DNA of 63,478 nt, filler included. It is 14 parts of 14 records of this genome, joined end to end, with 100 filler letters (N's around TTAATTAATTAA, not from the genome) between each part and the next. Parts side by side here need not be neighbours in the genome. Positions count along the whole stretch, not along the records: positions 28,027 to 34,094 come from SRR9670534_1302; 13 more parts are not named here. The stretch is one strand, 5' to 3'. Positions 3,971 to 57,049 of this stretch are shown in pieces. The first letter of the stretch is position 1, and each line of letters starts with the position of its first letter. Made by a program: the position numbers and the translations under genes. The notes under the pieces are model-generated. The model made no database searches. It saw nothing but the letters and a program-made list of their open reading frames with translations, and had not been told where the DNA came from.

Positions 3971-4048
3971 TACGGAGGGCAAACAATTTGGCTCATTGTT
4001 TGAATTGTTACTCTTCTTCTCAATACAATTAAAAACTACTTGACAAGA

Positions 4049-4609
4049 ATGGCTGACGCTCCTGCTGCCCAGAAAAAAGCAACTCCAAAAAAGGCCAAGA
4101 AGCCAGCAGCTCCAGCTGCTCATCCACCATACCTTAACATGGTAAAAGCTGCCATCAAAGCTCTGAAAGAGAGAGGTGGATCTTCAAGGCAAGCCGTTTT
4201 GAAGTACATCATGGCTCACTACAAAGTTGGAAATGAAGCCACCAAGATTAACGCAAGAGTTAAGGTTGCCCTCAGAAATGGACTCAAGAAAGGTGTTTTG
4301 GTTCACGCAAAGAAGGGAACTGGTGCCACTGGATCCTTCAAAATCGTTGACAAGGCTGAGAAAAAGGTAAAGAAGGTGAAAAAGGCAAAGAAGCCCAAAA
4401 AGCCAAAGGCAAAGAAACCAAAGGCTAAGAAAGTTAAGAAGGCTGCAACACCAAAGAAGAAGAAGGCTGCTAAGCAAAAGAAGGCTGCTAAACCCGCTAA
4501 ACCTGCTGCTGCTGCAGAAAAGAAACCAAAAGTTGCCAAAAAGCCAAAGGCTACAAAGAAACCAGCACAAAAGAAAGCCAAAGCAGCTAAGAAACCCGCC
4601 AAGAAATAA
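4049..4609 (+). CDS. H1: Linker histone H1 (intronless)
   Basis: ATG at 4049. Winged-helix globular domain HPPYLNMVKAAIKALKERGGSSRQAVLKYI...KGTGATGSFKI followed by a K/A/P-rich tail; TAA at 4607-4609. Confidence 0.97.
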   Translation: MADAPAAQKKATPKKAKKPAAPAAHPPYLNMVKAAIKALKERGGSSRQAVLKYIMAHYKVGNEATKINARVKVALRNGLKKGVLVHAKKGTGATGSFKIVDKAEKKVKKVKKAKKPKKPKAKKPKAKKVKKAATPKKKKAAKQKKAAKPAKPAAAAEKKPKVAKKPKATKKPAQKKAKAAKKPAKK

Positions 4610-6010: not shown

Positions 6011-6019
6011 ATTACGAAC

Positions 6020-9000
6020 CTCGACCAAGCGAATGACTAGTTATCCAACCATCACCAACTTCTTCTGGTAGCGCGCCAACAAATACACCATTTTCTTTGG
6101 TGGCAAAATTCAACTGTTCTGCTTTGTCAACTCCATATACCACCTCTCTTTCCTTACCACCATCAACAGAGAGCCACACATTATTACCATATCTTTCAGC
6201 ATGAATTGTATGCCATAATCCATCTGAATAATTGTGATTTCCTAAACGTATTGTTGTACCATCATTATCATCAGTGGTATCAGGGACATATCGGAATTTG
6301 ATATTCCCACTTGGTGTCAATTCAAGTTTCATATATGAAAGATCATTATCATTTCCACCTTCAACAAATAGCAGATATCCCGTTTGGCTGGTTTCTCTTG
6401 GGTCCACCAAGAATGAGACATCAATTTGTTCCCCTTGTTCTTCATCACCGACGGCAGCTCTTCTTTTTCTCTTGGCACCACCATATGGTCCTCCATACTG
6501 AACAAACGCATCTGGTCCCATGGTTGTCACAGGTTTGTCTTCAGTACAATATTCACCATATCTAAACTTCTTTTCACCATCGTTGTACCCTTTAGGATCA
6601 TAACAATGACAACTGAATGTTATAAAGGAGCTGGTACAGTATCCGTATTTTTCATCACAAAGACCACAGTTAACACCAGAAGAAATGCCTGGTGTTGAAT
6701 CTTCAACTTGTCCAAGAACATCACCTGGAAGCTCCAGAGATAAATCGACCAATTCTCCATTTTTGTAAAAGTTTTGTATCATACCAGTTAAACGAGCATC
6801 AGGAAGGTCGGCGACAACTGTTATTGATGTATCATGTATTCCCCCCACCTGCATAGGTGAGTCCACATCCAACAAAATGGCTTCCAGGGATATATCTTTA
6901 GCAATAATGTCCTTATTTTTGTCCAAAACAAGATACATTTTCTTGGTAAAGGTGGACATGAATAGGTCAATTTGGTGCCAATCACCGTTACCATATACAG
7001 CTAATTCAGATTCCATAAACACTTCTCCAGCACCAAGATTGAATCTCACCTTAACAAAACCACTTTGTAAATGTATCAGGAGAAAGTCACTTTCATTTGC
7101 TAAATCGGTCAAAGGCCCGTTATAGAGAAGAACAGCATTTACTGATTCAGAAGCAAATTCAAAAGTCAAGTTAAAGTCATCACATCTATTTATTGGTTCC
7201 AGCCAAACATAGCCACTACCTCCGAATTCTCTTGCTAAAAGCTCACAATTGGGACCATTAAATCCATTTCGACATTCGCAAAAATAGCCAACATTTTTAA
7301 CGACATCATTTTCATAAAATTGAGGACGACAAGTTCCACCATTTTTACAAGGAGGTACAGTATTACAAACGTTTTCAAGGGATGTTATGTTTGCAGCCAA
7401 ATATTCGTCTGTAGTACTTTCGGATATGCCCCCAATGGTACAAGTACATGATGTTGTAAGATCTAGGTTTAGTTTAATGTATGAACTAGAGTTTCCAGCA
7501 ATTGAAGTGAAGATGTCTTCAGTAGTATTATCTAAACCAACAACGGACGTACAACCTCCTGTTCCAAAGCAAGAAAAGGGTTGACACGCAGTTAATGGTG
7601 CCGCCAATATTGTTAAAGCATTCTCTTCAGCAATAGTTTCCATATTTAATTGCAAAAGCCCATTAATTGTGGCTTGGGCTATATAGGGATTAAAACTTGC
7701 GAAAAGATACACGTCCAATTTGTTCAAATACATATCTTCATCCAAAGATATTAATTCAACTGAAATTTGGTCCACAGATACCCCAGTAGTTTCTTGAAGC
7801 ATAGTTTTGACTGCATCAACAATAATATCATATTTAGATATACCAGTTTCAGGGTCTTCCTTTACAAATTGTTCCGCTGTCATATCACCTAATCTGAATA
7901 CTGTTGTCTGTCCGAAAATGTTACTGTTTAACGACAACACTTTAATTGTAACATCTGAATAAGCAACAACTTTAGATCTAGCCTTTTCCTTAATGTCAAC
8001 TTTGAAATTGAACTGATCTCCAGCATCTCTCAACTCATCAACATTAATGTCATCAGAAAAAGTAATGTATCCCTGAGGGTCTAAGCTAAAATAATATAGA
8101 AATTACGAATGATGAAAAAGATAAATACATTTAATTTAATGAAAACGACACGAATTATTAGTATAAAAATTTTGAGTTAGTTTTTGCAATTTGATCTAAT
8201 TAAACAATCCTGTGTAGTTCTACTTGAGTCAGGTAGCCCAACCTATTTGTTGGTGCCAACAGTAGTGACATCTATTTATAGACATAAACATACTGGAAAA
8301 AGGTTGTGTCTTCTCCTTCACTTTTTTCGAAATTGTATTGAGATGTATCAACCCATTTACCAGGTTCTGCAGCTTCAACATTTACTCTTCCTAGTGCACC
8401 CTGTGGCAATTTACCTTCAAATTCAATCACGTTAAGTTCAGTTTGGGAGGTGGAACCCTCCGCAATTTCGCCGTAAGTTGAAAAGGCTACTGTAACTGGA
8501 GTTGCCCGTTGGTTTACACCATCCGAAATTTGAAGTGTAAAATGATATTCTCCAACAATATCTTTACTATCTGGATAAATAAATATTTCATACTTGAGAG
8601 GAATTTTAGTTGAACCATCATTCAATTCTTCCATCCCATCTATAGTACCAGTCTTTCCCTGCACCCTAATCGTGGCAGCACCAACCAATGGATTATCATT
8701 TACAGATAATGAATAAGTGTTCTGGTTACAAACACCGACACCGTCAGTATCGATTGCAAATAAATTGGAAAATTTCGTAACAGATTGATCAGAATCTACT
8801 ACGAAATCTGAAGGATACAAAGAAGGTGCATTGTCGTTTTCGTCACCAACATTAATTGTCAACGTAGAAGTACTTGACATACCATCTATTGACATACCAA
8901 TTAATCGCATAACATTTGTAAAATTGTAACAATACAAGCATAAATTATAAGCTCTTACCTTTATCTGTCGCAACAACCGGAACATAATACGTTGGAATAT

Positions 9001-11217: not shown

Positions 11218-14148
11218 TCAAACATATTTAAAACACTTCTGTTCATCATATCCAATTTTCGTCTTGAAAAGAACAGAATCAACCCTAAACTGGGTATTTA
11301 ATAGGGGATTGTAGCCATAAATCTCTGCAAAGTAATTAATACAATTATGTCTCTCTTGAAAATGAGACCCAGACCCATATAAGGTATTGCCACAGGTAGG
11401 ACAAGTAAATGTCCATCTCGAAGTTGTTTTGATTGGAGGCTTTCTGGTAATATGAGATACAAGAAAATTCATTGCAATATCTTCACAATTTACATATTCA
11501 TCGATTTTGTCTGTGATCCTTTGATCCATGTAGTAACTGTACATGAAATAGTAATACTAAAATAAAAAATTTTAAAATCCAATAAATTTTGAAAAATTAA
11601 ATTCTAAAATTTTCATAAATTATAAAACAGAAAGTAAAATTATTAAAATGATAACCTTATGTATGAAAGCAGCTCCAGTAAGGACCATAGACAATTCACA
11701 TGTATGATTAGAACTGTATGTCCATGATTTACCATTCCAGCTATGAAACCTTGCAGGAAACCCTACAATTTGATCTCTTACTTCTCTCCAGACTCTGAAG
11801 CCAAAAATAATTTCATCATGCCTCAAATGCATGTCATCATCCATAGACAATATTGCATCAGTTTCAATGATGTCATATGGCAGGAATCTATTATTTAAGC
11901 TGTTTTTACTCGTTTGAAGGACAAAAATGGGTACATGAATATCTGGCCATACCAAAGTCTTGCTTGGTGCCTCGGGGGAATTCCAAACGACAACAACCTT
12001 GTTTAAATATGGTAAACCCTGTAGTCTTTCCAAGGACTGAATTAAAACCATATCTCTTTTATATGTTAGCATAACAATTGTAAATTGTTCTCTGGGGAAA
12101 TTACCACCCAATGATTCACTAAAATGATTGCCATCTCCTCCTTGACCATTGTGAATTGGTCTGAAACCATATCCAGAACCAATAAATTTAGCTTCTGAAG
12201 GAAGAACATTAAGATCAAATGGAATAGATGGAAACATATGAAAGGGGTCTCTTTCAGGAAAATTCCATGCACTTTTCCAATATGAAGACATGTTCTTTTC
12301 ATAAGTAGGTGAAGAGAGAGCTGCTTCAATTGGTCCTAAGTATTCTTCATTTTCTGGTGGGTCATACTTAACAAGTGGCTGCAATAACAAGGGAATTGAC
12401 ACTGTTCCATTATTAAAAGCACCAATGCCCAAATGCTGTTTAACTGGCAATGGGGGAATGTTTAGTCGGGTTCTCATTAAACCTAAATAATAAATACGTG
12501 TGACATGTACAACGCACATTTGCAATTTTACCGATCTAACGCCGCGACGCTTATTTCATGGTGAAAAAAATTGGAGCGGCGTTTTATAGTTAAACTTTAA
12601 TTGGGGTTTAATGTTGGCACATTAATATAGGCGTTTATTACATAGTAAAAAATAGCGCTGCGGCGGCTAATTAATAAGGGCGTCGCTTATTTAAGGGCGG
12701 TGTTAGATCGGTGAAATACGGTATCCAAAACACTTACCAAAAATAACATCAACGTATACTGGAAGGGTTGAAAAGTAGTGAAGCCAAAAGTTTCTGCCCT
12801 GTCGACGAAGTTCAATTACATCCGCATCTGAATATGTTCGCAAAATAAAGTGAAGCTCAGTAACTCTTGCTTTCGGTAGGATAACAGAGAAAAGGTTCCA
12901 GTCGATTATTTCAGAAAAGGGTAAATAGAGCTGTCCATGGTCTGATAAAATAACTGGAACTGCACCAAATTTTAAACAATTCCAAATAGTAGTAAAATAG
13001 TCGGATTGTTCAATTACAATGCAAAAATTGGATTCCCTTAGGAACTGTAAATTTTGATTTTTATTGTCCGTAATAAATACGTCATCAATATTAGTAGATT
13101 TTATTGTCTTAATTTTCTCATCAAGTAAGGAAGATGTTTGCGAAAAGTACAAAAAGAAGTACTTCCTTCTTGCAGGCACAATTGGTGTTAGGAAGTCCGT
13201 ACTGTTCTTTGAGTTAGTAAAAATCTCAAATGGAAATGAGAGTATGTCAAAATATGGTCTAAAGTCTTCAGAATAGCCCTGAAAAATTAATATCGATCTA
13301 CTTTGCTGCAACTTTGGCATTACTTTGTTATTCTTGCCCAACTTAATTACATGGTTTCTGCCATCTCCACCCCAATATGTTAAAGTCTTCTCATCTGTGA
13401 AATGAAATACCAAATAAAGGCAGGCCGTAGCTGGATTTGTTGTGACATACTCCGAAGTAGAAATTTTCTTTTCTTCGTCGTCATAAATGTAAACTTTACC
13501 ATGTGTTGTTATAGAACACCTGGAGTAGTCAAAGCATGAACTCATTGAACATTTCTGAGCTAGACTAGGCTGAGGCGGATGGTAAATTTGAAAACTCTCT
13601 GCTGCAGGACCAACAGGCAAGGGTGGATGAAGTTTAGGAGATTTTGCTTTGACTAAGTCTGCATAGGCTATCTTTGCTTGATCTATATCGAAATGAAGTC
13701 GTTCTAAATGCCTTCTTAAGCTTTCATATTCAGCTTTTAAATTGTTAAGTTTGGTATTTTCTTGCTTAATCATCTCCTTCAGATTCCATCTTTGCTCTTC
13801 TAGAGTTCTAAGTTCGTCACTAGTCTTTAGTTCTATTTCCTCAAGAAATGACAAATGTTTTTGGAGACTATGGTATTTGTCAATTTGAAATTCATCTGGC
13901 ATTCCTTTGATAAATCTACCTTGCTGTAATATGGGATTTTCACTAATCTTTTCTACATCTTGCTCGTCATATGGGATTTTCTGACTTGCTTCATTATAAT
14001 GTGATCTTATGAAACTATAAATGACTAGGGTTGAAACAATGGTTGCAATCAATGAGGTTATCATCACCAAAAACATAAGCTTAGCATTTCTGACAACTTG
14101 AAGAAACAAAGATTGATTTCTGTTATGGTAACGCATAATGTACTGCAT
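11218..14148 (-). CDS. EXTL3: Exostosin-like 3 glycosyltransferase
   Basis: Exons 14148(or 14136)-12738, 12482-11656, 11556-11218. N-terminal TM, coiled coil, GT47-like domain ([15 protein letters not shown]) and GT64 domain ([40 protein letters not shown]). Confidence 0.95.
12523..12721. mobile_element. pogo/Tigger-like MITE in an EXTL3 intron
   Basis: TIRs (TT)ACCGATCTAACGCCGC ... GCGGTGTTAGATCGGTGAAATACGG followed by TA. Internal GCGGCG/CTTATT subterminal repeats; a GC-rich island in an AT-rich intron. Confidence 0.65.
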
Positions 14149-15670
14149 CAGTGTGTACTTATTATTACATTGTACCAGAAGCAGAAACATGCATAATAAT
14201 AACAACCATGGAACAGAACGAAATCGCCAATGTTAGACATATATACATGCTACGTATCAGCGTAGCAGTCACACTGTAGCTAAAAATGAAAACACACAAC
14301 AAATACACATCATATGTAATAAAATGTTTGCAAACAGATGCTAGATGGTATAAGACGTAAAGAACCAGAACAACTGTTTTTCATTCGCTAAATAAAACGT
14401 CTGATAATAGTCAGACTAATACAATAGGTAGCCCCTACTAGTACATGACATTTGTAGCAGGCATATGGCCTATGGTACATAAATTGTCACATACCAAAAC
14501 ATATACCTAGGTACCTATGTACATATGTAGAAAATGCGTACAGTACCGTATAGAAAATACAAGTAGGTACAGTATCTTATATGAAACTTATACGTTTCTT
14601 ATACATACTAGGTACATAATGTTCATGCCTACATAAAAAAGGCTATGATTGCAAACATAGGCAAGAACTCCTTAGATACATACCTATGTACATAGGTATG
14701 TAATAAGAAGTATTGTCTACCATGTACATTGTAGAACAGTCCCTGTACTCCTTCAATCAACTTGATTCAATATGTACTACCATTGACTCTACAAAACCCT
14801 TATCGAAAATTAGAAATTTTATTAATTATTAATAATACTGAAAATTCTAATAATTATTATAATAATTTTCTAATAATTATTAATTTAATGAAAAATTAAT
14901 AAATTAATAAATTTAATAACTATTCTAATAAAAAATTTAAATTATAAAAAAAGCTAATAAAATTTTAATATAAAATGTAGACTATAAATAAATTTTATTA
15001 CTAAAATGCTATATGTACTTCAGTTAGTTTTAAAAAGTAAAATAAAATTTATCAATAAGATTCTATCAACATAAAACTTGATTTAATTTAATTTTATAAT
15101 GTAAAGTAGTAAGCATATTTATTTTTTCTCAAAAAAAGTAAAAACTTATATACTGTAAAGTTTTGTCTAAAAGGCATGCTTATAAGGTAAAGCAAACTTT
15201 CTTGTTATAAAACATATTTGTCTTATATAAGAAGAAGTCTTATAGTAGGCATCAAAATATAAGGNNNNNNNNNNNNNNNNNNNNNNNNNNNNNNNNNNNN
15301 NNNNNNNNTTAATTAATTAANNNNNNNNNNNNNNNNNNNNNNNNNNNNNNNNNNNNNNNNNNNNGAGTAAAAAGGCGCGAAGCAAGAACGCTAATTTAAG
15401 TTCTTAGAACATTAATCAGAACTTATTATACTTTAGTTTATACTATAAACTTTATAGTCAATATTGGTCCAAAAGTTTTGGATGCAACCATGGTCTATTG
15501 AATGTGCCTATACCGATGCTTTACTGTATTATGTTATATATTTAGTGTAATAGTAAAACGTTTTTTATTGTAAAATTAATTGTATTATTAATTAATAATA
15601 CATACTATTGTTACAATAGTATTGTATAATATAAAACGCTTTTAGTATTTAATAGTACTGTATTATGTAT

Positions 15671-27510: not shown

Positions 27511-28124
27511 TAACAGTTAAACATCCTGAAATTAGAGAACAATTATGCTTAGTAATATTTTTTTATTATTAATAATTTATTGAATAGCAAATAATAAGTA
27601 CACCGATGTTATTATTAAGTTCCAAAAAGGGCATTGGTCAAATACATTTTCAGTAGAATTTTATTATACTAATAAGCATGTCAGAATGCAAAAGTATTGA
27701 CATATGCTTTTGCTTTATTTTGACGTTATTATTAATAATAAATGGCTGCTAATAAAAGGGGAGGAGCTACAATTTCAGTGTCAAAGGCGACAGCTTATAT
27801 AATGAATGTCAATATTGACTGCTTTAGAAAAATAGAATAAACATTTGCCATTTACTAAGTTTAATTGAGAGACTCATCTTTGTCACTATATCTAATAATG
27901 CATCAAGAAATGTGAGGTAATGTATGNNNNNNNNNNNNNNNNNNNNNNNNNNNNNNNNNNNNNNNNNNNNTTAATTAATTAANNNNNNNNNNNNNNNNNN
28001 NNNNNNNNNNNNNNNNNNNNNNNNNNAACACGTGACTTTGTCACAAGTTAAAATATTATAAGTTATAACATTGTAATAACATTATTATAATAATTTCTCA
28101 TGTCATCAAAAATTTTAATTTTAG

Positions 28125-31100
28125 GATGCTCAAGATGTATACATTGAGCAAAAACGCGATGCAGCCATAACTGCTAAAATAACCATGCTACAAAGCTTTT
28201 TCCGCGGAATTCATTACAGAAGACAATTTTTACGTCTAAAAGAAGATGTCAAGGTGTTGCAAAAGTTTGTTAAAGGAGCTCTTGAACGGAAGAGATTTTT
28301 GGCTGTAAGATTTTTTTGATTGTACATTTTATTGATATTTTCCAATTTATCATACTTAATGATAGTGAGCGTTCCATTAACATGACATAACATAACATGA
28401 ACACGTTATTAACACATTGTACGATTACATAGATGAAATTGGGTTACATGAGATTACAAGCAGTCGTTCGAAGTCAAGTGCTAACACGCCAATTTGCAAT
28501 GATTAGAACAAAAATAATCGGGTTTCAGCGTTATTGTCGTGGTTCATTAGTACGTGAACGCTTGAGACGAAGTGCTAGCAGTGCAACGCTCATTCAGTGC
28601 TACATCAGAGGCATGATTGCTCGAAAGCGCTTTTATGAATTAAGACAAGAGCATGCCAGGCTTATGGAGCTAGAAAGGCAGAAAAAAGAAAATGAGCAAA
28701 AACTTCGCAAGCAAATGAACCAAAAGAAGGCACAAGAGGAAGCAAATAGGGTTGCAAGGTTACAGTATGAACGCTTGCAAGAGGAAAAACGAAAGCGAGA
28801 TGCTGACACTGCTAGAGCTTTGGAAGAGAAGAAGCAACGATTGGCCGAATCAGAAGCAACAAATGGCGAAGTGAATCCTGAACGTGAAGTTGAGCAAATC
28901 TTTAACTTCCTTGAAAGCTCAAGTGCCACTGGAGAACAGTCATCCACTGCCTCTGGCCCAAGGGCTTTTTCTGATTTACCCAGAAGAGCACCAGGTTCAA
29001 TTGATGGATACTCAATTTCGGATGCAAGATTACCAATCTTGGAGGACACAGAAGATATTTCAGAGTACAAATTTAGCAAATTTGCCATGATGTATTTTCG
29101 ACAAGATTCATCAGCTACATATGTGAGAAAGATGTTGAAGTATCCTCTCCTAGCCTTAGAGGATGAGGGTGACCAATTGGCTGCTTTGGCTGTCTGGGTT
29201 ACCATTCTGAGATTTATGGGAGATTTGCCCGAACCAAAGTTTCACACTTCAATGGCAGAGGAGCCGGTAAGTATCAATTGAGTAACATAGAACAATTCCC
29301 AGAAGTTAGTTAACTCTTGAAAGTAGACATCTAGTATCCTTTTTAGACAAATATGGCTGTTATGACAAAGCTATATGACACGATTGGAAAAAGCTATGGC
29401 AAAAAGCATGTTGCTGACATTGTTGAATATGGACAACAGTTTGAGCAAAATCCAGCTGGAGACGATATTCTTGCAAATCATTCCTCCCAACGTGGTGTCA
29501 GTAAGAAAGTCAGTGCGAAAAAGAAAAAGGGTTTGGTGTCTTTGACTCTTCGAAAGAAATCCAAGTTGACTGCAGCTATGGCAGATAGATTGAAAGCTGC
29601 AGATTTTGATGGTCCTGCAGCTACAATGCTTGAAGATAGACCTACGTCAAATTTAGAAAAATTACACTTTATCATTGGAAATGGTATTCTTAGGCCAAGA
29701 ATTAGGTAAAGATTGTAAGGATAATGAATTGCTACTTCTATAAATATATATTATATCATAATACCTAATATGGTATTAATATGTTATAAAGTGCTTTAGA
29801 TATTATTAAAGGACTTTTTTACTTGTGCCAATTGGTGCGCCATCTATTAAGCAATCTACGTTGAGAATGATGAAATTAATTAGCCTGCAGTATAATACTG
29901 CCAGTATTGTGTATTTGAGACCTATTCTTTATTACTATTTGTTTTGTAATGTTGTAGGGATGAAGTCTATTGCCAAATTTGTAAGCAGTTATCTCACAAT
30001 CCATCAAATATTAGCGTCGCTCGTGGATGGATTTTGCTTTCACTTTGTGTCGGATGTTTTCCTGCTAGTGAAAATGTAATTCTTATAAGCCTTGCTTCTT
30101 TGCTTTACCAAAATTGAATTAAGACGTCTTTCTTTAGTTTGTAAAATATTTAAGAAATTTCATTCGAGATGGACCAAAAGGTTATTCTGGCTATTGCGAA
30201 GAACGTCTTCGACGAACTTTTGCCAACGGTGCAAGAAGTCAACCACCAAGTTGGTTGGAATTACAAGCAACCAAATCCAAACAAGCTTTGATGCTGCCAA
30301 TTACCTTCATGGATGGCTCTACGGTAACATTACTTGCAGATTCCGCAACAACATCTCGAGAACTTTGTGAAGCTTTAGCAGCTAAAATTGGCTTGAAGGA
30401 TACATTTGGTTTTTCCCTCTACATTGCTCTCTTTGATAAGGTTTCATCCTTGGGTAGTGGGAGTGACCATGTAATGGACGCTATATCACAATGCGAGCAA
30501 TATGCTAAAGAACAAGGTGCCCAGGAAAGGAATGCGCCCTGGAGGCTGTTCTTTAGAAAAGAAATTTTTTCACCATGGCATGATCCAACAAAAGATGCAG
30601 TTGCAACAAATTTAATTTACCAACAGGTGATTCGTGGTATCAAATTTGGAGAATATCGGTGTGATAGGGATGAAGATTTGGCTATGATTGCTGCCCAGCA
30701 ATATTATGTCGATTACGGAATAGACATTACTGCGCAGAGACTTTCGCAAGCCATTCCTAATTACTTGCCAGAATACTGTTTAGCTGGCGGACCAAGAAAT
30801 TATCAGAAATGGACCCAGCTTTGCATGGCATCTTTTCACAAGGTTGATTAATCAATTGAACATTTCATTTTTAAATTTATATGTAATATTGCAATATTAT
30901 AATGATGCATTATGATAGAGTTACTACGCTAAAGAAGGAACACCTCAATCAATCGTCAAAGAAGATATAGTCAACTATGCAAGATTCAAGTGGCCTTTGT
31001 TATTTTCTAGATTTTATGAAGCCTTTAAATTTAGTGGGCCCACCATCCCGAAAAATGATGTTATAATTGCAGTTAATTGGACAGGTGTCTACGTTGTTGA

Positions 31101-33881
31101 TGACACTGAACAAGTACTGCTTGAACTTTCCTTTCCAGAAATCATTGGTGTTTCAACTAGTAGAGCTGCTAGATCACAAGCAATGAGCTTCATATTGTCC
31201 ACGGTTAGAGGAGATGAATTCGTCTTCACAAGCAGCAGTGCTGATGACATCAGAGAGTTAGTGGTAACATTTTTGGAGGGTTTAAAGAAAAGATCTAGAT
31301 ATGTAGTAGCGTTGCAAAATTATGGCAATAACAATGCTGCTTTTGATACTAATTCAGAGTCTGGAGCAAATTTTTTGAACATGATCAAAGGTGACTTGAT
31401 CCTGTTGGATCAAAGCAGTGATGAAAGGTTGAGACAATCTGGTTGGTGCATTGGAGAAAATCAAAGGACTGGCATGCAAGGCGACTTTCCTGCTGAATGC
31501 GTTTATGTTCTTCCTACTGTCACAAAACCCCTTCCTGAGATTTTGGTATGAAATATGTATAGATATCAGTTGTTGTAATTTTTTGCTTTTATTAAATTAA
31601 AAAATCCACTTTTTTAACTTTATCATAAACTTTGTTTTTTAAAATAATAATCCTTTAGAAGTTATTTTTTGACACACCTGAGAATTTTGGTGGGGCTGGT
31701 GAAGACAGTACTGACGTGATCTCATTGTCAGGAAATGAAAGGCCTCACACCCTTGAAGCCTACAGTTATGACCATTTCAGACTTCCACCTAAACGAACTC
31801 TGACTGGAACGTTTAGCAGTGCTAGAAGATCAAAGGAACTTCTTTGGAAACATCACAAAGACCCTTTAAAGTTGCCACTTTTAAGAAAGCTATGTGACTC
31901 TCAAAATGAAGAGCTAATTCAACAGGCTTTGTTTTGCAATCTGAGTATACTAAAGTACATGGGTGATTACCCAACTAAAAGGGTTAATCCTGGAGTTGAA
32001 TTTACAGATATCATATTCAAAGAGACTCTGACTAACGACCTATTGAAGGATGAAGTGTATTGTCAGCTTCTGAAGCAGTTAACGGAAAATAGACGACAGT
32101 AAGGATATTTGACAATACATGATATACCTTTAAACTGTTACGAAATTATACCTTTAGGGCAAGTTACGACAAGGGTTGGGAATTATTATGGCTTTCAACT
32201 GGGTGTATTGCTCCAAGTGTAACTTTAATGAAGGAAGTTGAATTATTTTTGCGAACAAGGAGTCTACCTTTATCTGAAGAATGTTTGCAAAGATTGAAAA
32301 AGACAGTCAGGTACGTTGAAATTACCTGAATTCCTTTCAATGTTATAATACATAAATATCTTAAATTATTATAGTAGTGGTCAAAGAAAATATCCTCCAC
32401 ATGCCATAGAGGTTGAGGCCATCCAACATCAAACAACCCAAATTTACCATAAGGTTTATTTTCCTGATGAAACTGATGAAGCATTTGAAGTCGGAAGCAG
32501 TACAAGGGCTAAAGATTTTTGCCAACAGATTGCTACCAGATTGAGACTACAATCATCTGAGGGCTTCAGTCTTTTTGTCAAGATTTCTGACAAGGTAATC
32601 AGTGTCCCTGAAGGAGATTTCTTCTTTGACTTCATAAGTCACTTAACTGAATGGATTAAGAATACTAGGGGAAGTAGTCAAATAATTAAGTTATCCTACC
32701 AAGTGTTTTTCATGAAGAAACTATGGTTTAATACTGTACCTGGAAGAGATCGCCAAGCAGATATTATATTTCATTATCATCAAGAAGTGCCAAAATATCT
32801 TAGAGGATATCACAGATGTTCCATCCCAGAAGCTGCTTTGTTGGCGTCTTATATTTTTAGGGTCAAGTTTGGTGACGATGAAACCAAATTAGATTTTGTC
32901 GTGTAAGTTTTCAATTTAAATTTTGAAGTTTAAATAGCTTAAATTATGTTATTTTAGGCAAAAAATTCAAGAATTTATACCAGCAGATTTGGTGAGGCAA
33001 GCCAATCCAGAAGATTGGTTGGTACTTATTCGTGAACAATATGTGAAAAAAGTGGGAATGATACCTGAAGAGGCCAAGATAGAGTTTCTGAAAGTTATTT
33101 ACCACTGGCCAACATTTGGCTCCGCCTTTTTTGAAGTCAAGCAGACCACTGACACCAATTTACCACCAGTTCTTTTAATTGCTATCAATAAAAATGGAGT
33201 CAACTTAATCCATCCTCAAACAAAAAAAATTCTGGTGAACTATCCCTTCACAAAGATATCAAATTGGAGCAGTGGAAACACTTACTTCCACATGTCCATA
33301 GGAAATTTAGTTAAAGGTGGCAAACTCCTATGCGAAACACCTTTGGTAAGTACCTTTTTAGATTTCTATATTACAACAGTGAATTTATTTGTGTAATACT
33401 GCAACAATGAACAAATAGGGTGATAGCATAGCAGACTTGTTATCATCTTGCAAAACGTACGTTACAACGATTGCAAGTTCAAATGACGACGTTTTCCATA
33501 CTTATGGAGAGGAGAATCAAATTGTTCAAAGAAATTCCTTGGCATACCATCCTCCACCTTACTCTAGTATCGCCTATGGAGAAAAAACACGTCGTCAGCG
33601 TCCTAGAACATCCCTTGATTTGGCACATGATGGAAAGTTTAGATACACTAATCACCGATATTCAGAAATGTTACCATCTTCAGAGATTTTGACAAAATTT
33701 TAAACGTATATTGCAGCGCTTAGCTTGCTTGCAATTTTGTTCGTCCAAGACGATTTAGAAATGCATAAAAACATGAATGTTCATCTTTTAGGGATACAAA
33801 ATGGATGATCTTTTAACCTCATACATCAGCCTTCTACTATCCAATATGAGTAAACAAAGGTCTACGTTAAGGATAAAATGA
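28125..33881 (+). CDS. MYO7A: Myosin VIIa (crinkled), neck and tail
   Basis: Five IQ motifs, an SAH/coiled region, then MyTH4-FERM-SH3-MyTH4-FERM, with typical peptides ([66 protein letters not shown]). Canonical last exon 33792-33881 ([13 protein letters not shown]). The motor domain lies outside the contig. Confidence 0.97.
33419..33703 (+). CDS. Putative alternative terminal exon of myosin VIIa
   Basis: AG acceptor at 33417-33418 is in phase with the donor after 33345. Reads [15 protein letters not shown]..., paralleling [14 protein letters not shown]; 94 open codons ending ...ILTKF*. Confidence 0.65.
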   Translation, partial: GDSIADLLSSCKTYVTTIASSNDDVFHTYGEENQIVQRNSLAYHPPPYSSIAYGEKTRRQRPRTSLDLAHDGKFRYTNHRYSEMLPSSEILTKF

Positions 33882-34336
33882 AGAACTTGTTGGACCTTTT
33901 TGCAGCCTACCAATATAATTATGTTTTATACATGCTAATCTATTTATTGTTTCTTACCATACTCCGTTCCTTCATACAACAAATTACATTCCCTTTTTTT
34001 CTTTTGCTGTGCTTATTGAAATTTTATTAGTCATTTTATTAGTCAGCCGTAAAATGTATTTAACTGTATTGCATTTTATCATTTAGATTTCATTNNNNNN
34101 NNNNNNNNNNNNNNNNNNNNNNNNNNNNNNNNNNNNNNTTAATTAATTAANNNNNNNNNNNNNNNNNNNNNNNNNNNNNNNNNNNNNNNNNNNNATAATA
34201 TGTATTATTATTAATAATAATAATCATAGACTTTATGTAACATAAATTATGTTAATTCTGTAGTATACTAATTGTACTACAACATGTTATGAAAAGAAAA
34301 GATAAGCATGAATTTAGAAAGAGGAAGGCGACATTG

Positions 34337-40325: not shown

Positions 40326-41653
40326 ATGTCTCATGAACTTGCTTATGCTCACGCGCACAATTTTATTGACCAGCTCTATCGGGACGCTACGTTGTCATAC
40401 AGAAGGCGCCAAGACCTGGCCAACGCGCTTTCAAGTGATGAGGAAGCTCTTCTTTCAAAGGAGTTTTGTGAGGAACATCCTGAATCCTTGGTTCTTCTTA
40501 GCATGAGGTCATTGTTAAAGCACAAGCAAATATCAGTGAAGGCTTTGAGAAGTCACCTACGCAAGTTTTTTCAATCATCAACAAAAATATTAGAACTAAT
40601 AAGGCAATTGTTTCTTGAGGAAAACAACTTGCAAAATTGTTCAGAAGTCTTTTTGGTGGAACGCTGTCCCGAGAAGCTATGTAGTACATGCAACGATCTA
40701 GTCATAGAAAATGCATACGTAAAGGATGAAGACTTTGAGCTTCTGACAAGACAACCAGTTCAGAGCCTAGTGCTTGCTGGTGCAAATTTTGATTGCAAGC
40801 CTATTTTCAATCATCCTTTAAGCAGAAGTGGCAGAAGAAGAACAGATGCACTTATCAGAGTTCTGCTGAACAAACAACTAGAATTTGTATACATTGATGG
40901 GAAAACGCTTGAAAATATTTTTATGACAGACATCTCTTTGGTTTGCTTTCAACGTTTTTACTTGCTAACTTTGCTTACTTATCAGTAGTAATTAAATGTT
41001 CCTTAGGATCGAGAATCTTGGAATCGAGATCGTGAATTGGATGAAATCTTGGCAACGTTGACTCAAATTTCCAATTTAAAATTTCTTTGTTTACCAAGCA
41101 TTAAGGCTTGTTGGCTTCTTAACCGATTAACAAAATTACACAATCTGGTCTATCTTGATTTATCTTTTTTCATTCCTAGTAGTATCGGTGGAAGCAACAG
41201 CCCAAAAGCAGTAAACGATGATCTAAGCGAGTTGCAAATGTTAACGAATTTGCGAGTTTTGATACTGTTTGAATGCCCTGTTTACGTTTTACAATTAAAT
41301 TTGGAATATATTTGTAAATTGAAGAAATTAAAGTGAGTTACCTTCGTTTAAACGGATTCGCAATATTTAGAGTAAATTTTTTTAGAAAATTGTCAATTGC
41401 TTCATCAGTGCCAGATCCAAGTGAAGCTGCCACTTTCGAAAATCCTGTTGCATTTTTGGGAACCCTTTGCTCTTCACTGCTGCAATTAGAATTTTTGGAC
41501 ATATCTGGAACAAATCTCACAACCACTTCTGGTCATTCTTCTAGAAAGCTGGAAGCAATTGAGGATTTGAAAGGATTGGAATATCTTGGACTCCTTGATA
41601 CATATCCAGATATTGCATCTAATAATATTATTGTCCCATCAAATGTTAAAAAA
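40326..41653 (+). CDS. ZER1/ZYG11-like LRR protein (CRL2 substrate receptor family), 5' part
   Basis: Exons 40326-40940, 41007-41332, 41386-41653. LRRs LVYLDLS, LRVLIL, LEFLDISGTNL and LEYLGLLDT resemble ZYG11/ZER1. Confidence 0.6.
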
Positions 41654-41900
41654 GTAAAATTTTATTTAAACTAAACAAAATTGCATAAATTCTACAATTT
41701 CCAATATTATTGTACAATATATCCAATGTATGAGTTTTGATAAATTATACATATTATAATAGATTTTACACAGGGTTGAACTCCTAAATTTTTAGGAAGT
41801 NNNNNNNNNNNNNNNNNNNNNNNNNNNNNNNNNNNNNNNNNNNNTTAATTAATTAANNNNNNNNNNNNNNNNNNNNNNNNNNNNNNNNNNNNNNNNNNNN

Positions 41901-55300: not shown

Positions 55301-56155
55301 AACACGCACCTTGCGATAGTCGCTTTTTTCGTTACAACGAGACAAGATACCGTTGTGAACATCGATGCAAATTTCCTCCACTTGTCTGGAGAGCATTGTA
55401 AAACTTTGATAAAACTCAACGCAATGACCATAATTTTTATCAAATTCACGAATGTGCTCCATGTAGCTCAACTTAATGTCATCAACAGTTTTCCCCGTTT
55501 CTACCACTTGTTCCTTCATTTTGCGTAACGTTTTTCTTACAACTCGCAAGAAACGAGAATGATCCAAGAATCTGTACTTCCGCATCCAACCAAGGCTGTA
55601 TCTTGGCAAGAATTCTTTATATTTCTTGCAAAGGGAACCTATATCTGTTTGGTACTGCAAATGACACCTGAGAAGATCTAAACAACACAATTTTGCACAA
55701 TACTCTGTCTTTTGAATATTGACTAAACCGTCCAAATAATCTTTTCGGTATTGAAAGAAAAGATAATTGAAAGACGAATGATGGAACGTCCGAAGATGTC
55801 GCAGATCCCAAAAATAGAATCGCAATCGAAATTCAAACACAAAAGGAGGCACATCTTCATCGTCAGGCAAATAAATTTCCCCGGATGGTGGCAAAAAATA
55901 TGTAGGATTATTTGATTTCGTAATAGCTTCTTTAAGTCCAAATAAATGGTAGCAAACCGGATCTATTCCAGCTTGAAGAGATGCTTCCAAGATTATGTCA
56001 TCAACTTTAAGTCTGCTTCTGTTCTTGTACTGAAGTATACAATGCTTATTGTCTTTATCCCTTCGGTACAAAAATACATGAAGACTTCCACTGCTGGCAA
56101 TGGCAGCGTCTTTGTAGGACAATCCAAGGATTGGAATCTTTTCAACTTCATACAT
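52332..56155 (-). CDS. JAK: Janus kinase (FERM, SH2-like, pseudokinase JH2); JH1 beyond the contig
   Basis: FERM (AGIDPVCYHLFGL, FRLRFYF, FNYLFFQYRKDY), IAGYVKL, CHGP, an SH2-like exon, and a pseudokinase with LGEGKFT, VAVK, HGN (not HRD), KLGDPG (not DFG), WIAPE, DIFSYGTFLWEVFS. Confidence 0.9.
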
Positions 56156-57049
56156 GGTTCTCAGCAGACAACAACATGTTCATCATTTCTCGTGGTCAAA
56201 AAGCTGAAATGAGAAGCAAGCAATTAGGCTCTATTATGAATATATAAGAGTGAGAAAATCATCATCATTGACGAGAAAGTATGTCTTGCACCACAATGCA
56301 ATAGTATGGCCAAAAGTGGGTTTCAGGCCCAAATAACGGACTATTTATTAACATTTTTAACTCAATCGATCATGATTATCATAACAAAAAGTTTCTCTTA
56401 TGAGATTATTATTATTAACATTTTCTGGGTGCATTTCTCCACACATATATTCTAAGTACCAATAAGAAGTTACACTGAATTATTAAAGTATAGCAAACAT
56501 GCATACACTTTACTCGTACGATCGGATACACATACATACGAAGCAATATTGTACAATTGCACTACGTTTATATATGACGCTTGGTTATCCATCATTTAAA
56601 AAAGTCACTTCATAACAAACTGTTTGGTAACTGCAGTGTGTCAGATATAAGAGAAATATGGGTATAGCCAAAAATACATCTGTATTTTTGATCATCAGCA
56701 AGACCATAACAAATCAGTCGCCCAGCACTAAGAGAGCTCATATTTACTAATATGCATAAGGCATAAATAGCTGAAGTTACTTCAACGAAGTATTAATAAT
56801 AATGTGTACTGTAATAATAAGCAATTATAGTTGATTTCAGTCTGGTTAGTGGCTACATTTTATTATTAATAATAATTACAATCATAATAATGATCATATT
56901 ATTATTANNNNNNNNNNNNNNNNNNNNNNNNNNNNNNNNNNNNNNNNNNNNTTAATTAATTAANNNNNNNNNNNNNNNNNNNNNNNNNNNNNNNNNNNNN
57001 NNNNNNNCGACATCTAGATGTGTATTTGTAGAGCTTAATAATTAACCCA

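Follow-up and report, generated by a model that had tools for sequence, protein, structure and literature searches.

A candidate alternative last coding exon in the final intron of a myosin VIIa gene

A coding-like frame inside the last intron of a class VII myosin gene

In a 63,478-nucleotide (nt) stretch of DNA (the window), the last intron of a class VII myosin gene contains a 285-nt open frame (33419-33703, +), consisting of 94 codons (33419-33700) and a TAA stop (33701-33703). On balance, and judging from the sequence alone, we lean towards reading this frame as a genuine alternative coding exon of the myosin VIIa gene, restricted to one lineage. The main positive result is that the frame looks coding, both in its G+C content and in its frame-specific codon usage. 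The chief competing explanation is that it is unexpressed intronic sequence, either open by chance or the decaying remains of something older, for example a former copy of the last exon that has dropped out of splicing, and that the motifs of the encoded protein are coincidental; we regard this as a serious possibility, though not the outcome we expect. One point in its favor is that the frame was singled out of 63 kb scanned.

The window consists of 14 contigs of ~2.3-6.5 kb each, linked by artificial 100-nt spacers (44 N, TTAATTAATTAA, 44 N; for example, 34095-34194), and therefore genes lying side by side in the window may not be genomic neighbors. The candidate exon is located inside a single contig, 28027-34094 (SRR9670534_1302), which codes for the tail of a class VII myosin only. 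In tblastn searches of the window with four homologues, matches were confined to 28104-33878, and the myosin motor domain was absent from the window. Ten introns were placed by eye and by alignment to homologues, giving an eleven-exon model of 1473 codons with no internal stops. Pfam domains were found on seven exons in the order IQ, MyTH4, RA_2, FERM_M, FERM_C1_MyoVII, SH3_9, MyTH4, RA_2, FERM_M, and IRS-type PTB. The tail is equally close to named myosin VIIa proteins from insects, fish, and birds (59-64% identity over 600-1300 residues), and the best match of the gene among solved structures is the C-terminal MyTH4-FERM region of MYO7A (5mv9). As judged from tail architecture, the assignment to class VII myosin, as a myosin VIIa orthologue, is supported; domain order, structure match, and sequence identity all agree with the name given in an initial annotation of this DNA. 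The fly counterpart is named crinkled.

The penultimate coding exon (32958-33345, +) codes for the last part of the FERM2 F2 lobe and for the beta-strands of the PTB-like F3 lobe, and ends in ...CETPL in phase 0. It contains the Pfam FERM_M and IRS-type PTB matches, the latter covering positions 1-75 of the 92-position profile, and it aligns with residues 372-498 of 527 in 5mv9, which runs 29 residues past the aligned end. Because the profile stops short in this exon and the solved structure continues, the F3 lobe is completed by the last exon, as had been claimed for the canonical last exon at the outset. The canonical last exon (33792-33881, +) follows TTTTAG and contains 29 codons and a TGA stop, encoding the conserved C-terminal helix and a basic end; it is 79-87% identical to homologues by tblastn.

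Without the candidate exon, the last intron is 446 nt long. Within it, an AG at 33417-33418, itself part of a TAG, lies directly 5' of the 94-codon stop-to-stop frame. Use of this proximal acceptor would leave a 73-nt intron (33346-33418, +) running from a GTAAGT donor to AAATAG, with a G+C content of 0.26. The stretch from the extra stop to the canonical acceptor (33704-33791, +) would then serve either as 3' untranslated region (3' UTR) or as an 86-nt intron starting from a GT at 33706. Every element of the layout proposed in the initial annotation can be read in the sequence: the donor after CETPL at 33345, the starts at 33419 and 33792, and an extra exon of 94 codons with its HPPPY (read here as PPPY, residues 45-48, 33551-33562, +) and its LTKF end (T-K-F, 33692-33700, +, followed by TAA). 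The first ATG of the frame does not occur before codon 84, so that the frame, if coding, must be spliced to an upstream coding exon; a stand-alone small gene was ruled out on the same ground.

With the candidate exon included, the 446-nt intron resolves into a 73-nt intron, a 287-nt exon, and an 86-nt intron. The nine upstream introns are 55-252 nt long, eight of them within 55-128 nt. Introns of 73 and 86 nt are of typical size for this gene, and one of 446 nt would be its longest; this geometry speaks for the exon.

Base composition and codon usage of the candidate frame

The G+C content of the candidate frame is 0.382, compared with 0.33-0.43 in the eleven exons and 0.16-0.31 in the nine upstream introns, and the 446-nt intron is the only one in the gene with exon-like G+C. 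The spacer 33704-33791, at 0.35, is also higher in G+C than all nine upstream introns. By codon position, the G+C content is 0.43/0.45/0.29 in the candidate frame and 0.47/0.38/0.33 in the coding sequence of the gene, both being lowest at position 3.

Codon log-odds were trained on the exons of the gene and corrected for the base composition of the segment scored. The candidate frame scored 0.168 per codon, and the other five frames scored -0.11 to -0.61. Thirty true coding windows of 94 codons, each left out of training, gave 0.185 +/- 0.079, with 10 of the 30 falling below the candidate. Of 5000 stop-free frames drawn at random with the same composition, none reached 0.168. An independent model was trained on the other genes of the window only (2567 codons). 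It gave the candidate 0.169 per codon, compared with a maximum of 0.119 among 13 certainly non-coding open reading frames (ORFs) of at least 60 codons, all in the same contig and off-frame or antisense to myosin exons. The exon-like G+C, together with a codon usage that no random frame reached and that exceeded all 13 non-coding ORFs, argues against unexpressed intronic sequence.

The codon score has limits of its own. Among the 187 ORFs of at least 60 codons in the window, the candidate ranks 17th, and the sixteen above it include eight myosin exons and one histone H1. Two overlapping ORFs, 41318-41671 (+) and 41341-41532 (-), score 0.18 and 0.17 per codon. At most one of these antisense partners can code, and therefore the score does produce false positives, which counts against reading the candidate as an exon.

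The length of the frame tells less than its composition. A run of 94 open codons has a probability of 2e-3 at the composition of the ORF and 2.4e-4 at that of introns. We compared 27 metagenome myosin VII loci with an intron at the same position, and stop-free stretches of 84-113 codons were present in 5 of these 27 last introns. ORF length by itself is therefore weak evidence, and these stretches are a point for unexpressed intronic sequence. However, the five introns are all longer (681-1678 nt), whereas the candidate fills 64% of a short, AT-rich intron of 446 nt, unlike the long introns in which chance frames occur. No second copy of the candidate sequence was found in the window or in 80 myosin VII loci, and a repeat or transposon origin was ruled out by this uniqueness.

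Splice signals and overlapping frames

The candidate frame is open, coding-like, and in phase with the upstream donor, and it is flanked by usable splice signals (the GTAAGT donor and the TAG acceptor). The candidate acceptor ends in TAG, like all ten real acceptors of the gene, and its position weight matrix score of 2.03 is inside the leave-one-out range of those ten acceptors (-9.4 to 10.4). Three features of this site are less favorable to the exon reading. Its tract is purine-rich, and this weak tract fits an unexpressed sequence; its score is middling and well under that of the canonical site; and another AG at 33431, 13 nt downstream, outscores the AG at 33418 and selects a different frame. 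The in-phase joining emphasized in the initial annotation is true but carries no weight. It is automatic, because the upstream TAG that bounds the frame also provides the AG, with a phase-0 donor before it.

The frame chosen by the AG at 33431 is a second open frame of 86 codons (33432-33692, +) that overlaps the candidate exon, and an antisense frame of 60 codons also overlaps the region. The presence of a second frame again suits unexpressed sequence. Both frames, and the stronger AG, could also indicate that the coding stretch is not part of the myosin, but rather an exon of a nested or overlapping gene, the frame 33432-33692, or an antisense gene. We consider this very improbable. Across both codon models, per-codon scores of the other five frames run from -0.11 to -0.64, the 94-codon frame lacks an early ATG and has neither a Pfam family nor a homologue, and the myosin donor is the only phase-compatible donor nearby. 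The frame 33432-33692, with a codon score around zero or negative, and the antisense frame were both rejected on codon score.

Downstream of the extra stop, a GTATAT donor candidate is found at 33706, only 2 nt past the stop. Its position weight matrix score of 1.45 is low among the real donors (leave-one-out range, -2.2 to 11.3). No AATAAA or ATTAAA is present in 33701-34094, up to the contig end, where the only similar hexamer is CATAAA at 33764. An upstream terminal exon would be expected to have its own poly(A) signal or a mechanism of exclusivity, an expectation that is not borne out here. The missing signals and the GT next to the stop suggest that the exon arises from an alternative 3' splice site or is a cassette with its own stop, and either fits the arrangement better than the mutually exclusive last exon that had been proposed. 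The two exons are also unlike in length. At the RNA level, "mutually exclusive exon" is probably the wrong label; at the protein level, exclusivity follows from the stop codon alone.

An assembly artefact, in which the extra 372 nt would come from a mis-join or from a collapsed haplotype or paralogue, is hardly credible: although the assembly is fragmentary, with 14 contigs joined by spacers and the motor domain outside the window, the feature lies well inside its contig, its edges carry no N or repeat, the splice signals on both flanks are normal, and the gene model is otherwise intact over 1473 codons.

Resemblance to the canonical C-terminal helix

The initial annotation took the two exon starts to be the result of exon duplication. 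They share G1, D6, L7, L8, and S10, which gives five identities in the first ten residues and six in 22 over the longer span. The BLOSUM62 score of the first ten residues is 21, a value reached by 372 of 200000 shuffles and by 2 of 2049 other 10-mers of the window that start with G. Over 22 residues, the score of the likeness is reached by 496 of 100000 shuffles and by 11 of 1184 window 22-mers, both exons counted. The resemblance of the helices at this fixed offset, which involves invariant positions of the canonical helix, is modest (p ~0.002-0.005, and ~0.002-0.003 for the first ten residues); together with the predicted helical start of the candidate, it counts in favor of the exon. With a position-specific scoring matrix built from 48 distinct canonical helices, the candidate scores -25 and the canonical exon of this gene scores +70; 87 of 33734 window 22-mers match or beat the candidate. 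Both helix segments are amphipathic with similar moment directions.

At the DNA level, identity anchored at the two acceptors is 51 of 130 positions, compared with 35.9 +/- 5.1 elsewhere in the contig, and 0.27% of null positions reach this value. A gapped alignment of the two exons is not above shuffles (score 14 versus a shuffle mean of 17.7). The hydrophobicity profiles of the two helices correlate with r of 0.18, a value reached by 23% of shuffles and not significant, which counts against the exon reading. Tandem exon duplicates show clear homology and similar length, and here the exons have 94 and 29 codons with 6 of 22 residues identical. The shared residues and the anchored DNA signal thus remain from the duplication claim, and the gapped alignment and the hydrophobicity profiles do not bear it out. 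We regard the case for duplication of the canonical exon as weak. A very ancient duplication would account for the likeness, and so would selection for a helix that has to dock on the same surface; the likeness proves neither.

The state of the frame is relevant here to the possibility of an unexpressed relic. So little DNA similarity to the canonical exon is left that a duplicate of this age, if unexpressed, should have gained stops, and the frame is open.

Conservation searches

We searched for relatives of the 94 residues in several collections, and the results weigh against a conserved exon. No credible relative was found by phmmer among 1.84 billion protein representatives, none by a word-indexed search of proteins of 166-2000 amino acids, and none by a scan of metagenome contigs; the ESM Atlas gave no usable match. 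The sole phmmer match, P0001 (928 residues, with near-identical repeats, matching in four stretches), was judged spurious, as it shows no other likeness. A tblastn comparison of the 94 residues, which had been suggested with the initial annotation as a check in related genomes, gave a best E-value of 0.18 against the 80 myosin VII loci, a set without close relatives of the host. This lack of relatives among proteins, metagenomes, and the 80 loci is a further point for unexpressed sequence.

The canonical end is, by comparison, strongly conserved. In 120 homologues, all of them proteins of at most 2000 residues, the penultimate exon is followed by the canonical helix in 111; in one more, the helix follows an internal repeat, and 8 read into the intron. 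The same eight residues follow directly in 111 of the 120, and few parts of the protein vary as little as the final helix. A replacement helix was found in none of the 120, which is also unfavorable to the exon.

We note that the collections contain no close relative of the host, and the blanks therefore exclude only an exon that is both ancient and widely shared. A real exon would have to be lineage-specific. The host is an invertebrate with a compact AT-rich genome, and its affinities lean towards the arthropods. The best identity of the penultimate exon in the protein collections is 71%. Three metagenome myosin VII loci (L012, L013, and L030) share a local G-G-K...ETPL signature with the window gene. 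Their last intron is 74 nt long in L030 and lost in L012 and L013, so none has an extra exon, another observation on the negative side. These loci have almost no other introns, and they were rejected as close relatives, being only 46-49% identical to the gene over the whole tail, compared with 60% for L002. Given this low identity, their lack of the exon says little.

Predicted structure and motifs of the alternative tail

When the 94 residues were predicted alone by AlphaFold2 from the single sequence, residues 4-31 (33428-33511, +) formed an alpha-helix, with a predicted local distance difference test (pLDDT) score of 76-78 over the first 20 residues. A low-confidence hairpin was predicted at residues 64-78, with disorder elsewhere. 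The complex predicted between the protein of the penultimate exon and candidate residues 1-40 had a score of 0.01; this was obtained without an alignment or controls and is evidence neither way. No Pfam family was found in the 94 residues.

The PPPY motif fits the PPxY pattern and falls in a predicted disordered segment (pLDDT below 50), and is therefore in an accessible position. The T-K-F end, which would be a protein C-terminus if the frame is expressed, fits the loose class I PDZ ligand pattern, [S/T]-x-hydrophobic. In shuffles of the same 94 residues, a PPxY occurs in 1.6%, a class-I-like end in 4.3%, and both in 0.08%. Reading PPPY as a WW ligand and TKF as a PDZ ligand is motif spotting, with the motifs chosen after the fact. 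The rate at which each motif arises in shuffles, together with this post hoc choice, is consistent with unexpressed sequence that carries coincidental motifs.

A possible switch at the end of the motor

If the frame is an alternative exon, splicing from the phase-0 donor at 33346 could go to the nearer AG at 33418 or to the more distant one at 33791. Use of the nearer AG would add 94 residues and a stop. The canonical exon, then past the stop, would be untranslated; it would either stay in the 3' UTR or be joined on by splicing from the GT at 33706. In the rejoined form, only ~5 nt would separate the stop from the last junction, and nonsense-mediated decay should not set in. A stop near the last junction does not trigger decay under the general 50-nt rule, and in either form the extra stop would be too close to any downstream junction to do so.

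In the resulting protein, the conserved C-terminal helix of F3 and the basic end would be replaced by a different amphipathic helix. This helix would be followed by ~60 mostly disordered residues that include PPPY, a basic R-R-Q-R-P-R-T-S stretch, and the -TKF end. The anatomy and the coding statistics behind this scheme are observed; its splicing and translation, a new helix that completes F3, and any altered partners or autoinhibition are what we infer from them.

A more speculative extension is that the end of myosin VIIa is switchable. A splice choice would swap the F3 helix, drop the basic C-terminus, and add a disordered tail with a WW ligand (PPPY), a basophilic phosphorylation-type site, and a PDZ-type end, such that the isoform might be regulated or tethered by WW proteins of the NEDD4, MAGI, or Yorkie type or by PDZ scaffolds, and perhaps be freed from tail-to-head autoinhibition. 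Judged from the sequence motifs, we think this functional scenario unlikely.

Several known systems offer a comparison. The canonical last exon of myosin VIIa has the same intron position and phase after ...CET-x-L, in 8 homologue models and in the 27 metagenome loci. It likewise starts with G, carries D6, L7, L8, and S10, and has a helical start, which is solved in 5mv9 and only predicted in the candidate. In contrast, the canonical exon is 24-35 residues long in nearly all homologues, with its first 11 residues almost invariant, while the candidate has 94 residues, lacks the canonical basic K-Q-R...K end, and has no homologue. The C-terminus of myosin XVa is a class I PDZ ligand for whirlin. 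As a MyTH4-FERM myosin with a C-terminal PDZ ligand, myosin XVa is a model for the -TKF reading, but it belongs to another class and its ligand is constitutive.

Among teleost myosin VIIAa models, two (P0066 and P0092) have ~60 extra, probably disordered C-terminal residues ending in EDDYL. Their extension follows an intact canonical helix, whereas the candidate would swap the helix, and the sequences are not similar. We note that P0066 and P0092 are gene predictions; in fish, the C-terminus may vary in another way.

Cargo and scaffolds bind to the second FERM domain of myosin VIIa. This domain also contributes to autoinhibition, according to a study of human myosin-7a that cites work on the fly protein (PMC10579538). 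The same study describes long and short N-terminal isoforms of mammalian MYO7A, with an 11-residue difference at the N-terminal end of the motor (PMC10579538). These isoforms likewise come from one gene and link a small terminal change to different regulation, but the change is at the N-terminus. In a non-exhaustive survey of the myosin VIIa literature, based on passages of a review on unconventional myosins (PMC6981383) and of the study of human myosin-7a (PMC10579538), no report of a replaced C-terminal helix of FERM2 was found. A similarly non-exhaustive and partial survey found no such WW/PDZ-tailed isoform for any MyTH4-FERM myosin VII.

If the alternative exon is real, it would be a natural experiment on the roles of the final helix and the basic end, and could show how one splicing decision changes the partners of a motor. 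Should the frame be unexpressed, it would be a caution that exon-like composition, codon usage, and a motif story can occur without a transcript.

Other coding sequences in the window

Four further coding regions were identified in other contigs of the window. A linker histone H1 open frame, confirmed by Pfam, is located at 4004-4606 (+). A 696-codon frame at 6015-8102 (-) contains two laminin G domains, one EGF domain, and a weak match to a DE-cadherin Ig-like domain, and resembles a portion of a classical cadherin of the non-chordate type (type III). At 55301-56179 (-), an open frame encodes JAK-type FERM F1 and F2 lobes. An EXTL3-like glycosyltransferase gene (GT64 and exostosin GT47) is present in two large exons, 11623-12555 (-) and 12706-14232 (-). 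Its top named relatives are from ticks and insects, with an identity of only ~30%, and this low best identity suggests that the host belongs to a divergent lineage without a close relative in the collections.

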